Virus record (IMG/VR): IMGVR_UViG_2529293044_000023
Source of the DNA: a virus
Lineage: Duplodnaviria > Heunggongvirae > Uroviricota > Caudoviricetes
Length of the DNA: 20,544 nucleotides
Reading direction: 5' to 3' (one strand)
This document shows positions 3,304 through 13,918 of this stretch, piece by piece (position 1 is the first letter of the stretch; every line of letters starts with the position of its first letter). The notes beneath the pieces are model-generated. The model saw nothing but the letters and a program-made list of their open reading frames with translations. It did not search any database and had not been told where the DNA came from. The translations under genes and the position numbers were made by a program.

Positions 3304-3797
3304 TGTTGCCCCCACAAACAGACTTCACGCTCAATCTCGCGGCGAGTCATCAGCCCTTTCCATTGCTTACCGCCAGCGTATGTCCAGCGCCGTAGCTGAT
3401 CACATGCGCCTTTGATATCGCCCTGGTTTATTTTGCGAAGAAGCGTCGATGTTCTGAAATTGCCAGCGCCCACGTTGTAAACGAACGAGTAAAGAGCGCC
3501 GCGCGTTGTTTCCGGTATATCGACGTTGATGTACGGGTTAATTTGTCTGGCGACCGTGGCAAGGTCTTTATTCAGGAGGGCTTTGCATTCTGCTTCGGTA
3601 TACGTTTTACCGAGCATAATGTCTTTTCCGGTGTGCCCGTAACATACAGTCCATACACCAACGATATCTTTATATGGTATGTAGCTGACGCCTTCCAGAC
3701 CATCGTTACCACTTGGGCCAGTGATTAACACAGATGCTATAGCAATAGCCCCGCCACCAATAGCCGCAGCAACGGCTTTTCGTAATGATGGAGGCAT
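3300..3797 (-). CDS. R: SAR endolysin (phage-21 R-type, T4-lysozyme-like muramidase)
   Basis: N-terminal signal-anchor-release segment ([20 protein letters not shown]) followed by the catalytic E-x8-D-x5-T signature ([23 protein letters not shown]). RBS GAGGTG; start overlaps the holin stop (TAATG). Confidence 0.9.
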
Positions 3798-4012
3798 TAT
3801 TCACCTCTCGCAGCCTTACGCTTGTCTTCTCTGATTTTGAAGTACAGATTTGTCAGGTAAGTCAGAAAGCCCAGAACCAGACTTCCCAGCACACCAATCG
3901 CAGCCCACTGTGACGGACTGACCTGATCAAGCCACTGTAAAAACCAGTAGCCAGCACTACCAGCGGATGTTCCGTAGGCAATGCCAGTAGAGATTTTGTC
4001 CATTGATTTCAT
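3797..4012 (-). CDS. S: Class II holin / pinholin (S21-type) with dual-start motif
   Basis: 71 aa, [71 protein letters not shown]. Two TMDs and an MKSM dual start (antiholin from Met1, holin from Met4), matching phage 21 S as I recall it. GGAGG RBS upstream. Confidence 0.9.
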
Positions 4013-4336
4013 AGCAACGCCTCCGCCAGTAACGGATTGCGTAGTTCTTATATTGGGAAGGGGAAAAAAGAAGGCCGCAGCGTAACTATCACTAATAAAT
4101 TCAGGACAGCCAGTGGCTACGGCTCAGTTTGGGTTGTGGCGGCCGGAATCGAACCGGCTTCCATCGGTGCGCTGCCGATTGCAGTACGCGCGGCGGTCAG
4201 CTATATGACTAGTATTTTCACTATCGCCTATCTGCTAGCTCGCCATTGAGCTTCACCACAACGATAAGAGCACTGCGCGGCACCTTTCACCAATTCCGCG
4301 AGGTCTGCGGGTTCAATGCTCTTACCTGTTGTGCAG

Positions 4337-4373
4337 AAAAAAAACCACACGGCAGCGAGTTTAAGCTGTGTGG
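4337..4373 (-). terminator. Rho-independent terminator on the minus strand (tR'-like late-leader terminator)
   Basis: Hairpin CCACAC-loop-GTGTGG (4345-4373) followed on the minus strand by a U8 run (complement of A8 at 4337-4344). Downstream minus-strand sequence TTTTTTTTCTGCACAACAGGTAAGAGCATTGA matches what I recall just after lambda tR'. Confidence 0.55.
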
Positions 4374-4476
4374 CGAAGTTACCTCTCTTCACCAAGTATT
4401 CGGTAATAAAATAACTTGTGGTGTTCTCGTTTTTATGCCGATAAAATAAACGGTCCACTTTCAAATGGAGCGATTC

Positions 4477-5397
4477 ATGATTTTTCTCAGAACTGAAAAC
4501 GGCATCGAGAAACTTGAAAACTGGGAGGAAATTATATCCAGACCAAACTTTGTCACCACTATAGACAAAGGAGTTCAACAACTTGAGGAGATAATTGGTT
4601 ACTACAAATTTAAAGAAGAAATCCACTGTGGTCTAACTGGTTGCAACCAACCACATCAAATGGGTTATATTGTAAAAACATCTAGTGGCATTGAAACCAA
4701 CATCGGAAATAAATGTGGTAAAAACGAATTTGGTGTGGAATTTGGTGAAAACGTTCTTAGTTTCAATAAATTTATGCAACTCGAAACCAATCGGGAAATT
4801 ATTAGCACCGCAAAAAGTAAATGTGAAGCGTGGCAAAAAAATATTGAAACGATACGAAATATCAAACCCACAATAGATTATCTATCTTCTACCATCGAAA
4901 ATAGTAAAAATTCCAATTACTCCGGAAGACTTGGTGCTACAGAAATTCGTTTTTTGACCAAGAACCAGACAGGCCTTGTAACCCTTTCTGAAGTGGAAAC
5001 TGATAAGAATACCAAAACAATTCTGTTCGCAATGAATGAACACATGCGCGAGTCTGGAGAGGCAATAAGTGAATTCTACATAGGAAAAGTATCATTTAGT
5101 CATGTTCTTTTACCAGAAAACAATCTTCGTGATTTTTTTGTTGCGCTCAAAGAAGATCTAAAAAAAATTCAGTGTATTGATCTACAAACAGCCCCAAGCC
5201 CAGAAATTTCTAATGTTGCCAAAATTGCCAGTTCAATCGAAGAACGAATCAAGCGATTAAAAAAACTGAAACATGAAGCCAGTAAATTCCTAACTAAAAA
5301 AAATCTGCGTCCCATCGCAAACAAAATAAAATACTCATCGACAGCGGATGAACTTGAATTCCATAATTTCGAACGCTTTTTAAAAGGGCTGAAATGA
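4477..5397 (+). CDS. Hypothetical protein, ~306 aa, AT-rich cargo gene of unknown function
   Basis: Long clean ORF on the strand opposite all flanking phage genes. Composition is visibly AT-rich against the phage backbone. GGAG 6 nt before the ATG at 4477 (the track's 4465 start has no RBS). Cys cluster HCGLTGC...KCGKN near the N-terminus and a charged coiled-coil-like C-terminus (IEERIKRLKKLKHEASK). No family recognised. Confidence 0.7.
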   Translation: MIFLRTENGIEKLENWEEIISRPNFVTTIDKGVQQLEEIIGYYKFKEEIHCGLTGCNQPHQMGYIVKTSSGIETNIGNKCGKNEFGVEFGENVLSFNKFMQLETNREIISTAKSKCEAWQKNIETIRNIKPTIDYLSSTIENSKNSNYSGRLGATEIRFLTKNQTGLVTLSEVETDKNTKTILFAMNEHMRESGEAISEFYIGKVSFSHVLLPENNLRDFFVALKEDLKKIQCIDLQTAPSPEISNVAKIASSIEERIKRLKKLKHEASKFLTKKNLRPIANKIKYSSTADELEFHNFERFLKGLK

Positions 5398-5400
5398 TAA

Positions 5401-5418
5401 AAGCCCCGAAAGGGGCTT
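5401..5418. terminator. GC-rich hairpin with GAAA tetraloop between the convergent cargo gene and Q; probable bidirectional terminator
   Basis: AAGCCCC-GAAA-GGGGCTT perfect 7-bp stem immediately after the cargo-gene stop. Flanked by T-rich tracts on both strands, though neither is a strong U-run. Confidence 0.45.
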
Positions 5419-5511
5419 CTATCAAAATCATTTACGCATTATTCCGCATGCTTAAAAGAATACATGACAGATTCGGACAAAATCAAGTGCAATGTCGCAA
5501 AAACCCTAAGC

Positions 5512-6342
5512 TTAGTTCACATCATCACCAAAACTTGTCACATTCTGAAAAGCAATATCGGCCTTACGCTCTTCCTGGTGGCAAATGTCAACCAGAGAAT
5601 CAAGAAACGGCTTCCAATTACGCGTCCATGTCCTGACATGTAGCTCGGGTATCCGCTTCAGTACAACTTTATATACTGTGGTAGACGGTACCGTGGAAAA
5701 TCCATTTCCGCTGCAACGTTCGCAGATTTTAAACACTGGCACACCACGCTCGCTTGTGGCTTTGCGGTCCAGTACCTCTCCCTTTCCACCACAACGACAC
5801 CTGGCACTTATCACTCCCTTCCCTTTACATACATCGCAAACGACTGGTACAACTTCCGTTACCTCTGTCCATTTCTCCCAGTCTGACGGTCGAACAGCAC
5901 GGGAGCGACTGGCCCAATATGGTGCTTTACCCCATGGGTATGAAACCTTACGAATGACCTGCTTACGGGGTGTTAGTCCGGTACCACTGCAACTATGGCA
6001 TGTTACGCTGGTGTCCGCCGATCGGGAATACTCAGCAAAAGCAAACTGCGCCAGTACCAGCATACACCAGCCAAATTCACCACCAGCTGCTTTACGCACA
6101 TTCTTCGGTGCAATTTCCATCGCGTGACGCGCCAGCGCTTGGACTGCCATCTGCTCATCAGTCTTGCTGATACCGGCCTTCCCGAAGAAGGCCGCCAAGC
6201 CAAACCGTTCACGATTGCTGGTGGTACCAATAGCCGCCATAACATCGGTGCCTGTAAGACGTTCCGGAGAGGTTCCTTTCACATCGTCGCCGATATACAT
6301 TCCCTGAGGACTGAAGTATTTTAGCGATGCCTCAAGCTTCAT
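5512..6342 (-). CDS. Q: Late-gene antitermination protein Q (lambda-Q family) with expanded Cys-rich region
   Basis: N-terminus (LTGTDVMAAIG...FGLAAFFGK), centre (VLAQFAFAEYSRSA...CHSCSGTG) and C-terminus (KPFLDSLVDICHQEERKADIAFQNV) parallel lambda Q as I recall it. 276 aa against 207 in lambda; carries four Cys-pair motifs (CHSCSGTG, CDVCKGKG, CRCGGKG, CERCSGNG) where lambda Q has two. Correct position upstream of the lysis cassette. Confidence 0.8.
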   Translation of the reverse strand: MKLEASLKYFSPQGMYIGDDVKGTSPERLTGTDVMAAIGTTSNRERFGLAAFFGKAGISKTDEQMAVQALARHAMEIAPKNVRKAAGGEFGWCMLVLAQFAFAEYSRSADTSVTCHSCSGTGLTPRKQVIRKVSYPWGKAPYWASRSRAVRPSDWEKWTEVTEVVPVVCDVCKGKGVISARCRCGGKGEVLDRKATSERGVPVFKICERCSGNGFSTVPSTTVYKVVLKRIPELHVRTWTRNWKPFLDSLVDICHQEERKADIAFQNVTSFGDDVN

Positions 6343-7199
6343 TATTCACACTCCCCAACCAGATTAAGAATAACCGCCGCGCCATTGTCTTTCATATATT
6401 CGCCCTTTCCGCTTGCCAAAAACCAACGACACACCTCCACTGCTTCAGCCCGTGTCACCGGTTTGATGGTCATCAGCAATTTTTCAAGGTAGCGCTCGCG
6501 GTCATATACCGATTCGTGATGCTCAGAGTAACCATACTCATCGCCCTGTTCTTTAGACGCAGTGTGGCGAACACTGTAGAGCCAGTCCCAGTAAACAAAC
6601 TCACGAACTACGTCTGACAATGTATGAGGCTCTGGCAGTACATCACGATAGCCATCAACATATGCACGACGCTGATCATCAATTTCATTCATACGGATGC
6701 CATCAATTCTGCCCGCTGTCTTCTCGGCTGCAGTCCAGCCCCAGAGATGATCGTCGATAAATTTCTGGGAAGACTTGATCACTCGCTCGGCTTCCACATC
6801 TTCGAGTGCTGCTTCATAGCTACCAAACGTAGCCCTGACTGATGTTGCTTTTTTGATATTCTCCCGGGCGATCCTGATTGCCTGTGCCGGGTTATCCATG
6901 CCGATGGTACCGAAAGCAATCTGGAAAGGATCACCACCATTCGCCAGCAGATAACGCGAATAGCGTTCCTGGGCCTCTTTTGGGGAAATTTTAATTTTCA
7001 CCAGCGCAGCCTCAGCAGCATCCAGATGTGCGGGTTCGTTCAGACGGATAACCTCCAGCACCCAAAGATAAGCATCAGTCTGCTTATGCCCGGTGATTCT
7101 CCGTTGCTCTGGCAGGGGCTTGATGTTTGCGAGGGCGGAGCTGTACGCTGCCGTCGGGATGGTGAATAGTGCTTTATGTTCGTTGTTATCAGTACGCAT
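6342..7199 (-). CDS. Hypothetical protein (285 aa) between the primase and Q, in the nin-region position
   Basis: Long ORF whose start overlaps the primase stop and whose stop overlaps the Q start, typical of a tightly packed operon. No domain recognised. Confidence 0.6.
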   Translation of the reverse strand: MRTDNNEHKALFTIPTAAYSSALANIKPLPEQRRITGHKQTDAYLWVLEVIRLNEPAHLDAAEAALVKIKISPKEAQERYSRYLLANGGDPFQIAFGTIGMDNPAQAIRIARENIKKATSVRATFGSYEAALEDVEAERVIKSSQKFIDDHLWGWTAAEKTAGRIDGIRMNEIDDQRRAYVDGYRDVLPEPHTLSDVVREFVYWDWLYSVRHTASKEQGDEYGYSEHHESVYDRERYLEKLLMTIKPVTRAEAVEVCRWFLASGKGEYMKDNGAAVILNLVGECE

Positions 7200-10556: not shown

Positions 10557-12818
<2,262 letters not shown>

Positions 12819-13094: not shown

Positions 13095-13228
13095 CGCAAC
13101 CCACCAATCTAAACTTTATAAATTCAAGATTACATCAAGTTTAAATTAACATGCAAGTCCACAAAAGATCGAATACACTAAAATCAAGTAAAAATTTATC
13201 GAAACCAAGTAACCAGCAAGGATTAACA
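13095..13228. promoter_or_regulatory. Divergent promoter/operator region between cro-like and cI-like genes (OR-like)
   Basis: AT-rich 134-bp intergenic region with repeated ATCAAGT-type motifs (13134-13140, 13183-13189, variant 13204-13210). Minus-strand TTATAA/TATAAA -10 candidate ~20 bp upstream of the cro start. Exact promoters not resolved. Confidence 0.45.
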
Positions 13229-13918
13229 ATGAAAAACTTAAAGAGCACTGAAAATCGAATTACAAAGCTGCTACAGGAGAAAGGCTGGAGCCAAGCAGAG
13301 CTGGCCCGAAAATTAGGTGTCAGCGCACAGTCCGTACAGTACTGGACAACAGGAAAAACATTTCCAAGGGGAAACCGGCTTGCCCAGTTATCCGAAATAA
13401 GTGGTTATCCGCAATCGTGGTTTTTAGGAGAAATCACGTCACGGCAGTTCTCTTCAAAGGAAAAACATCAAGCAAGAACTGACAGTGTGGTCTTTAACGT
13501 GCTCGATGTTGAGTTTAGTTGCGGCGATGGAACACATGTCCGTGGGGACTTTATCGATGTAGTTCGCTCAATCGAGCTTGATCCTGAATATGCCCGTCGC
13601 CTTGTTGGCAATAGAGCATTTCAAAACATAGAGATTGGTAACGCAAGAGGAGATAGTATGGCTCCAACAATAGCCCCAGGAGATCTTCTTTTTCTCGATA
13701 AAACAGTGAATTACTTTGATGGTGATGGCATTTATGCTTTTTGCTTTGATGGTGAATGCTACGTCAAAAGATTACAAAAGATAGGAAGTAAAATCATGGT
13801 GTTATCTGATAACCCAAATTACCAATCCTGGAGCATTGAAAAAGATGCTCTTGAGCTGCTTTATATCCAATCGAAGGTAATCTCATCTGTTCCATTCAAT
13901 ATAAATAGATTTGGTTAA
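13229..13918 (+). CDS. cI-like prophage repressor (N-terminal HTH_XRE, C-terminal LexA/S24 autopeptidase domain)
   Basis: HTH (WSQAELARKLGVSAQSVQYWTTGKTFP). S24 catalytic Ser in GDSMAPTI and Lys in ECYVKRL. AAGGA RBS 6 nt before the ATG at 13229; the track's 13151 start adds a low-complexity extension without an RBS and is rejected. Confidence 0.85.
   Translation: MKNLKSTENRITKLLQEKGWSQAELARKLGVSAQSVQYWTTGKTFPRGNRLAQLSEISGYPQSWFLGEITSRQFSSKEKHQARTDSVVFNVLDVEFSCGDGTHVRGDFIDVVRSIELDPEYARRLVGNRAFQNIEIGNARGDSMAPTIAPGDLLFLDKTVNYFDGDGIYAFCFDGECYVKRLQKIGSKIMVLSDNPNYQSWSIEKDALELLYIQSKVISSVPFNINRFG

Follow-up and report, generated by a model that had tools for sequence, protein, structure and literature searches.

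We analysed a stretch of viral DNA of 20,544 nucleotides (nt) from the class Caudoviricetes (IMG/VR record IMGVR_UViG_2529293044_000023; hereafter the window), in which a gene encoding a protein of 306 amino acids (aa) is located between the gene for the late antiterminator Q and the lysis cassette. The original prediction, made from the letters of this stretch, had described an open reading frame (ORF) of about 306 aa in the Q-to-S interval on the strand opposite to the flanking phage genes, and this placement is confirmed by the identity of its neighbours, a Q protein of the PF03589 type and an S21-type holin, both encoded on the minus strand. The data presented here show that this cargo gene is nested antisense in the leader of the late operon of a lambdoid prophage, next to the predicted late promoter pR′ and its terminator tR′. 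The features at the locus are as follows.

4477-5397, plus strand: coding sequence (CDS) of the 306-aa cargo protein, ATG at 4477 and TGA at 5395-5397, from the ORF and its translation.
4467-4470, plus strand: Shine-Dalgarno sequence GGAG, 6 nt before the ATG at 4477, read off the sequence.
4419-4447, plus strand: predicted sigma-70 promoter of the cargo gene, with the -35 element TGGTGT at 4419-4424, a 17-nt spacer and the -10 element TAAAAT at 4442-4447.
4627-4716, plus strand: codons of a putative CCHC zinc site, C51 at 4627-4629, C56 at 4642-4644, H60 at 4654-4656 and C80 at 4714-4716, from their invariance in a wide alignment (A2, see below).
5512-6342, minus strand: Q antiterminator of 276 aa (PF03589, expect value (E) 2.6e-52; PHROG 127), convergent with the cargo gene.
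5457-5486, minus strand: predicted pR′, with the -35 element TTGATT at 5486-5481, an 18-nt spacer and the -10 element TATTCT at 5462-5457.
5444-5455, minus strand: element of the initially transcribed region, TTAAGCATGCGG in the window, a conserved alignment block (consensus TTAATCATGCG).
5395-5424, minus strand: tR′ hairpin with 13-nt inverted-repeat arms, core GCCCC-GAAA-GGGGC at 5403-5416, followed by TTTTAT on the minus strand.
4337-4373, minus strand: second terminator-like element, a hairpin at 4345-4373 followed by T8 (4344-4337); inverted repeat I5.
3797-4012, minus strand: S21-type holin (PF04971, E 1.4e-35), the first gene of the lysis cassette.

Beyond the holin follow lysozyme and Rz, both on the minus strand, and beyond Q lie genes for a PHROG 6204 protein, a primase and a helicase. 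An alternative, mechanically called ORF of 310 aa begins at 4465; the start at 4477 is favoured because MIF(L/I) opens all homologues at this position. A comparison of the GC content with the flanks bore out the predicted AT-richness of the gene: it amounts to 35.4% (30% at third codon positions) as opposed to 48-54% in the seven flanking genes, and the gene is the lowest-GC stretch of 921 nt in the window. Such a foreign base composition is one of the properties by which accessory phage cargo, i.e. morons, can be recognised. No tRNA gene or Rfam family was detected in the window.

Comparison with three homologues that are 77-85% identical yielded a ratio of nonsynonymous to synonymous substitution rates (dN/dS) of ~0.10 for the cargo gene, with values of 0.05-0.065 for residues 1-90 and 0.11-0.13 for the remainder. 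The gene is therefore under purifying selection, and the ORF is a real, functional gene. The protein matches PHROG 7003, a family of unknown function, over its entire length (E 1.6e-110, residues 1-306 on positions 1-309 of a profile of 309), and a RefSeq homologue of identical length (WP_000576789.1) is labelled 'hypothetical protein'. A word-indexed search returned about 100 clusters, every one 'hypothetical', from E. coli, Salmonella, Enterobacter, Citrobacter, Leclercia, Pectobacterium, Serratia, Yersinia and Providencia. An exhaustive profile search yielded 1,006 representatives at 50% identity, 574 of them at E <= 1e-10, with a nearly uniform length of ~300 aa and one matched stretch each. 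Searches of Pfam and NCBIfam with the cargo protein matched no domain, nor did a Pfam scan of 44 distant members, and the KilA-N DNA-binding domain that is the hallmark of BstA is likewise absent from the Pfam results. In agreement with the original prediction, which had recognised no domain, Pfam, NCBIfam and PADLOC were empty and PHROG 7003 remained the sole match. Moreover, a match to a housekeeping family of the late region, which had been named as an outcome that would speak against an accessory function, was looked for and none was found.

To locate the late-operon signals, ten loci with a PF03589-type Q were aligned along the minus strand, beginning at the stop codon of Q. At eight loci, among them Fels-1 and E. 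coli 2012EL-2448, both devoid of the cargo gene, the motif TTGAyT-18-TATnnT was largely kept; gaps across the -10 block were observed at two loci (L036 and L038). This block would thus correspond to pR′. The TTAATCATGCG block located downstream represents a candidate -10-like pause or Q-loading element, likened to those of the pR′ regions of lambda and phage 82. The subsequent hairpin lies within an 86-nt segment of the minus strand (5385-5470) that folds at -28.3 kcal/mol (z -4.0), and its U-tract overlaps the TGA of the cargo gene. On the plus strand the tail of the hairpin is a poor CUUCUAUC, and the T-run favours the minus strand. The pR′-like block, the TTAATCATGCG element and the hairpin with its T-run recur whether the cargo is a 25%-identical allele (phage 611R1), an unrelated gene (Fels-1) or missing (2012EL-2448). 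Because the T-run lies on the minus strand and the hairpin is kept with Q regardless of the cargo gene, we assign the 3′ hairpin as tR′ of the late operon, which also serves as the 3′ hairpin of the cargo gene. A placement of pR′ at 4374-4476, in the space separating the T8 hairpin from the gene, was rejected, since the promoter-like block on the Q side is kept even without the cargo gene and since this stretch of 100 nt co-varies with the gene.

In lambda and in Shiga toxin (Stx) phages, pR′ is constitutive and its transcript is terminated at tR′ in lysogens (PMC7547250). The corresponding RNA in lysogens of the window phage would be ~55 nt in length (5452 to ~5397, minus strand), and its hairpin would be complementary to the 3′-end of the cargo mRNA. 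A study of Stx2f prophages with a 276-aa PF03589-type Q could not find pR′ or qut (PMC10673567). In the window, the candidate pR′ and the TTAATCATGCG block directly follow the stop codon of a Q protein of this length and type (5444-5486, minus strand).

The hairpin at the 5′ side of the gene (4345-4373) is weak on the minus strand, with an A.C mismatch in its stem and a z of -1.85. It stands where the homology to phage HK75 ends, inside the annotated tR′ tail of HK75, and the element forms the left edge of a block common to the window and the Stx2f phage phi467. Close relatives carry clean GC hairpins with T6-7 approximately 117-123 nt upstream of the ATG. A minus-strand terminator upstream of the cargo promoter was present in 27 of 46 distinct regions versus 5 of 46 in the plus-strand control; a second terminator at this position is common, not universal. 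The gene had been described as bracketed by hairpin terminators. Hairpins are indeed found at both ends, but both face the late operon, the 3′ one being tR′ and the 5′ one being weak. As these terminators are the late operon's own, the gene is nested antisense in the pR′ leader and does not represent an insulated insert. The order on the minus strand thus reads Q, predicted pR′, tR′, the antisense cargo gene with its putative promoter, the second weak terminator and S-R-Rz. Hence, the cargo gene lies antisense between the promoter of an operon (pR′/tR′) and its distal genes (holin, lysozyme and Rz), a feature of noncontiguous-operon immunity genes of the Tai/Tha type (see below).

Upstream of the cargo gene, the arrangement TGGTGATC...(17)...GATAAAAT...AATGGAG-N6-ATG is common to loci encoding proteins that are 57-85% identical, and the sequence preceding this conserved block is unrelated among them. 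The AATGGAG-N6-ATG block is degenerate at two loci (L044 and L045). The predicted transcription start of the cargo gene is located near 4454. A consensus scan of the region for promoters and terminators revealed no more sites than shuffled sequences and missed both hairpins of interest. With regard to the promoter and terminator expected of a moron, the promoter-like block, the ribosome-binding site (RBS) and a hairpin at the stop codon are present, but the T-run of the latter favours the opposite strand. The conserved block suggests that the cargo gene is an autonomous unit with its own RBS and a putative promoter.

We further scanned IMG/VR with a close alignment, which yielded 80 phage loci encoding proteins 24-100% identical; the genes around them were identified by crude gene calling and by profiles seeded from neighbours with a Pfam type. 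At 57 loci a convergent Q was observed no more than 250 nt from the cargo stop codon (46 of the PF03589 type and 11 of the DUF1133/PF06530 type), and a convergent CI-type S24 repressor at a distance of 0.5-3 kb at nine. Two loci run off the contig, and the remaining 12 have neither a convergent Q nor a convergent CI, one of them showing just a co-oriented CI-like gene far away. A hairpin with a T-run was present on the Q strand in each of the 40 distinct intergenic regions between Q and the cargo gene; it begins 46-116 nt past the Q stop codon, and in most intact copies 1-8 nt separate its end from the stop codon of the cargo gene. Cargo proteins that are 75% identical to each other adjoin Q proteins of different superfamilies, so the place is conserved and not a particular Q; a Q-specific partner was ruled out by this lack of co-variation. 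The lysis cassettes beyond the gene vary as well, with the S21-type holin in the window, holin_3_1 in Salmonella and Serratia, and a lambda-family holin in E. coli EC2001.

Among related phages the gene is present, replaced or missing, as is characteristic of morons. It was found in 16 of 5,426 complete E. coli genomes at a coverage of at least 80%, and one Salmonella cluster representative is present on 756 contigs. E. coli 2012EL-2448 contains the same pR′/tR′, but the cargo gene is gone except for a 72-nt remnant of its 3′-end, which is followed by a methyltransferase fragment, tRNA-Ile/Arg/Arg and nanS. In Fels-1 (L013, 2267-2659) an unrelated gene of 130 aa occupies the same antisense slot past tR′; STM0904 of Fels-1 was rejected as a truncated relative (hhalign probability 0.4%). 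Phage 611R1 (L012, 1748-2692) encodes an allele of 314 aa that is 25% identical (BLASTP 2e-26, hhalign probability 100%) and adjoins a Q gene whose N-terminal two-thirds show 98% DNA identity to the Q gene of the window. The mosaic breakpoint with both 611R1 and Fels-1 lies inside Q, near position 5700 of the window. tRNA genes follow the 611R1 allele. The Stx2f phage phi467 (L001, 6140-7014) carries the cargo gene in the Q-stxA interval, where it has been annotated as two separate CDSs. The antisense position that follows tR′ is a hotspot for cargo. The view of the gene as accessory cargo in the Q-S moron slot is thus well supported by its predicted and conserved promoter and RBS, its foreign GC content, its absence, replacement or decay in relatives and a dN/dS of ~0.1.

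Dozens of 'partial' Salmonella copies (P0047-P0076) are located at the ends of contigs of mostly 24.8-27.9 kb. The repeated break of Salmonella assemblies at or within the gene suggests a nearby repeat, which is perhaps the Q/pR′ segment common to co-resident prophages.

This placement raises the question of whether the protein acts on late transcription itself. As a guard on RNA polymerase, Q or pR′/tR′, it could silence the resident lysis or stx genes or block a superinfecting phage in a Nun-like manner. The strict adjacency to Q, pR′ and tR′ at 57 of the 80 phage loci and with two Q superfamilies is in line with such a function, as is the joint divergence of the gene, pR′ and the C-terminus of Q between 611R1 and the window. 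However, 75%-identical proteins pair with unrelated Q types, family members exist without a nearby Q (beside cI, in a satellite-like element and in chromosomes, see below), and related phages function without the gene. We therefore consider a guard of this kind very unlikely.

The family also occurs in other genomic contexts. The immunity region houses the gene in the Klebsiella phage ST13-OXA48phi12.2 and the Pseudomonas phage D14S, where it is convergent with cI and has the leftward early genes on its other side. In these immunity-region contexts (L096, 4454-4888; L097, 4999-5310) the family gene is followed by a co-oriented small uncharacterised gene of 144 and 103 aa, respectively, which is absent from the loci with the Q context and might be a partner. 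In three IMG/VR phages (L090, L092 and L093) the gene immediately follows a co-oriented CI-like repressor gene, at distances of 45, 22 and -4 nt, and in one of them an integrase comes next; full-length membership in the family was indicated by hhalign for two of the three (L090 and L093, probability 99.8-99.9%). In Burkholderia phage phi644-2 the gene stands beside a RelE/helix-turn-helix (HTH) pair at the genome end. Metagenomic members were found in a satellite-like element with integrase, archaeo-eukaryotic (AEP) primase, small terminase and capsid genes, in an element with a DNA methylase, Arc repressors and an Mrr nuclease, as a solitary insertion flanked by folB and a Xer-like recombinase gene, and after nrdAB and after a Fic gene. 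All phage positions of the family are sites of known lysogen-expressed transcription. Such a lysogeny-type context makes a role in anti-phage defence or host interaction more plausible.

These contexts also bear on the idea that the protein benefits the phage during infection, for instance as an anti-defence or takeover protein, and is not expressed in the lysogen. The family is variable, accessory, uncharacterised and carried by mobile elements, and accessory slots harbour anti-defence genes too. Nevertheless, the orientation antisense to the late operon and, elsewhere, the co-orientation directly behind CI-type repressors argue for expression in lysogeny, and lone chromosomal copies make no sense for an infection-phase protein, which renders this explanation highly improbable.

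The AlphaFold2 model of the cargo protein, based on an alignment of 24 sequences, reached a predicted local distance difference test score of 92.6 and a predicted template modelling (TM) score of 0.78. The N-terminal domain of the model is beta-rich (strands 2-6, 9-13, 36-50, 59-68 and 73-77, followed by helix 78-85), and the C-terminal part consists of long helices (87-128, 241-271 and others) and two short strands. In the wide alignment A2, which comprises 44 sequences with 18-58% identity to the window protein, residues Y43, C51, C56, H60, G63, G77, C80 and G81 are invariant. The N-terminal Cys cluster pointed out in the original prediction is hence retained throughout the family and probably constitutes a CCHC zinc site formed by C51, C56, H60 and C80, the last of which belongs to a short helix (78-85) that succeeds a sheet of three strands. 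The invariant residues and the helix following the sheet might form a structural zinc finger of the treble-clef-like class, although no structural neighbour was found that would back this assignment. Foldseek searches against PDB (best E 0.36) and BFVD (best E 5.8e-3 at a TM score of 0.14) returned nothing informative, and phmmer and profile searches against PDB sequences nothing significant. The cargo protein shows neither a signal peptide nor a transmembrane segment, nor any known DNA-binding fold. A pore former of the ClyA/NheA type was rejected in view of Foldseek probabilities of 0.03-0.06 for the NheA and MakA rows and the absence of a hydrophobic head. Likewise, an HNH/His-Me finger (H60...N75) was dismissed, as N75 is unconserved in the wide family and no fold matches; H60 is better explained as a zinc ligand.

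The helical part gave rise to one enzymatic alternative, namely a divergent small alarmone synthetase of the toxSAS/CapRel type combined with a zinc finger. CapRel-type defences couple a synthetase with a zinc-finger-like sensor, and the profile of 44 members weakly matches the RelQ/RelP-type structures 3l9d (E 0.017) and 2be3 (E 0.035) at residues ~170-277. However, the RelA_SpoT Pfam domain is absent in all 44 members, and neither a fold match nor residue conservation supports the assignment. We therefore rejected the match and regard this alternative as nearly refuted.

In the reading that we favour, tentatively and at somewhat less than even confidence, the cargo gene is an autonomous moron nested antisense in the pR′ leader that is expressed in the lysogen and silenced by Q, and its most likely role is that of a single-protein anti-phage factor. 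In the lysogen, pR′ would fire and transcription would stop at tR′ right by the cargo stop codon, leaving the cargo gene free for transcription from its own promoter. The product would be a cytoplasmic protein consisting of a conserved CCHC zinc-binding beta domain and a long, more variable helical domain. Q-modified RNA polymerase passes through terminators. Once Q appears, this terminator-resistant polymerase would cross the cargo gene and its promoter antisense en route to the lysis genes, and antisense late transcription would switch the cargo gene off. The protein might protect the lysogen from other phages by superinfection exclusion or abortive infection, with the zinc domain as the shared module for activity or binding and the helical part, which evolves faster, setting the specificity. 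Our analysis establishes that the gene is real, foreign in composition, conserved, nested antisense and recurrent in lysogeny-type positions, and from there we infer promoter activity, the on/off logic, zinc binding and the role in defence. The more far-reaching proposal, in which the proteins form a widespread single-protein prophage immunity family with an unseen zinc-finger/helical fold whose position-tied on/off control avoids autoimmunity without an anti-defence gene, is possible, yet we hold it with considerable doubt.

Several observations weigh against the role in defence or against parts of the proposed regulation. The search of the window protein against PADLOC-DB v2.0.0 (5,027 models) gave no match at E <= 1, and the 44 family members gave isolated single-member matches at E 0.0015-0.0075, none of them meaningful. 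No effector or catalytic motif is recognisable, as the invariant residues are just Cys, His, Gly and Tyr, and the orphan fold offers no neighbour in the Foldseek searches of PDB and BFVD that would hint at a mechanism. The cargo promoter is a prediction and was missed by the consensus scan because its -35 element is weak. In phi467 the ORF is split by A7-to-A6 and A8-to-A9 homopolymer changes, which may reflect decay or sequencing error, and at least five IMG/VR loci carry frameshifts or premature stop codons in the cargo gene; given these decayed copies, the gene is dispensable. Moreover, the Q-S slot also carries cargo unrelated to defence, such as stx, tRNAs and nanS, and some distant members reside in ordinary chromosomal neighbourhoods, e.g. 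beside nrdAB and folB. No candidate for a counter-defence partner of the Tai/Ati kind was recognised: the sole minus-strand ORF at the 5′-end of the gene (4228-4626) spans the terminator, and its left part is homologous to the unannotated tR′-to-holin spacer of HK75. Finally, literature look-ups by accession, PHROG identifier and sequence retrieved no paper that names the protein, though an earlier description is not fully excluded.

Part of this evidence is shared by a further alternative, in which the protein is a lysogenic-conversion or regulatory factor without a function in defence that is expressed from the prophage and would modify the physiology or gene expression of the host, for example by binding to one of its proteins or to nucleic acid. 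The context of lysogen expression applies equally to such a factor, no defence model matched, chromosomal copies lie beside housekeeping genes, and cargo in the Q-S slot is often not defence. On the other hand, the lack of a signal peptide, a transmembrane segment and a known DNA-binding fold speaks against it, and both the extreme divergence of alleles at one fixed locus (25% identity next to a near-identical Q N-terminus) and the carriage by a satellite-like element resemble the behaviour of conflict genes. On balance, we consider a non-defence factor unlikely, and the anti-phage role remains our preferred interpretation.

If the protein proves to be a defence or exclusion factor, it would add a large unannotated family (~1,000 clusters at 50% identity) to prophage immunity, spread over Enterobacterales, Pseudomonas, Burkholderia and metagenomes and with a fold without mechanistic precedent. 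In this case the locus would also provide a clean genetic system for the silencing of a nested antisense gene by antiterminated transcription. If it shows no phenotype, it would be an ordinary moron without an assigned function. In the former case, the antisense unit and the mapped pR′/tR′ signals would also bear on the control of Stx2f expression in Stx2f phages, which carry the gene between Q and stx2f. Large and structurally orphan, the family is noteworthy for its very regular and suggestive placement.

Two further features of the window lie outside the Q-S interval.

6342-7199, minus strand: PHROG 6204 protein (a family of unknown function) of 285 aa between the primase and Q, labelled HTH-domain-containing in RefSeq.
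10788-12740: IS21-family insertion element with istA at 10873-11895 (rve and HTH) and istB at 11892-12674 (IstB_IS21).

The PHROG 6204 protein accompanies this type of Q in E. coli, Salmonella and Fels-1, and its sole other match is a weak one to the PADLOC model PbeC (E 0.0015). Comparison with a close relative, the prophage of E. coli N61, shows that the IS21 element is inserted, with an overlap of ~6 nt at the junctions. Its target is a small gene just downstream of a cro-like regulator, between the immunity region and the replication and Q genes, and the prophage in the window is probably impaired for lytic growth by this insertion. The gene for a CI-like repressor (HTH_3 and Peptidase_S24; 13151-13918) is the second lowest-GC patch in the window, at ~37%.

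The arrangement is reminiscent of several known systems. TaiEcA of phage phi80 is encoded antisense in the Q operon, termed a 'noncontiguous operon', and its level drops upon expression of Q (PMC11364771). The cargo gene resembles Tai/Ati of phi80 in being a prophage gene nested against a Q-dependent late operon; expression in the lysogen and the fall upon Q expression belong to Tai and are predicted here. A tblastn search of the cargo protein against 50,697 phage records matched seven records, and phi80 (TaiEcA, orf63) was not among them. In contrast to the cargo gene, which is located in the pR′ leader and abuts tR′, Tai lies upstream of the packaging genes. Moreover, Tai has the adjacent counter-defence gene Ati, whereas none was recognised beside the cargo gene, and the function of Tai has been demonstrated, whereas the cargo gene is known here from its sequence.

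A similar antisense arrangement and on/off logic has been described for Tha/Ith of Staphylococcus aureus phages (PMC11087260). Tha/Ith and RexAB of lambda are likewise defence genes expressed with the repressor, and the three family members downstream of CI-like repressors (L090, L092 and L093) occupy this rexAB/tha position. Unlike these systems, the cargo protein contains neither HEPN nor Rex domains, and the gene of the window faces Q, outside the immunity region. The late-operon signals themselves are comparable to those of lambda 6S RNA and of StxS (PMC7547250), where a constitutive late promoter is followed by a terminator right after Q; an RNA of ~55 nt is predicted here. The predicted RNA falls well short of the 258 nt of StxS, however, and it is an element of the phage backbone, not cargo.

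With classical lambdoid morons (lambda bor and lom) and with the Q-S cargo of Stx phages (stx, tRNAs and nanS-p), the gene has in common a foreign composition and its dispensability, and it would share with them a promoter and a terminator of its own. It differs from them by its antisense orientation, a stop codon fused to tR′, its uncharacterised family and its orphan fold. As for other cargo of the Q-S interval, the late operon tolerates its terminators because Q-modified polymerase ignores them. In phi467 the cargo gene and stx2f reside within one and the same Q-S interval.

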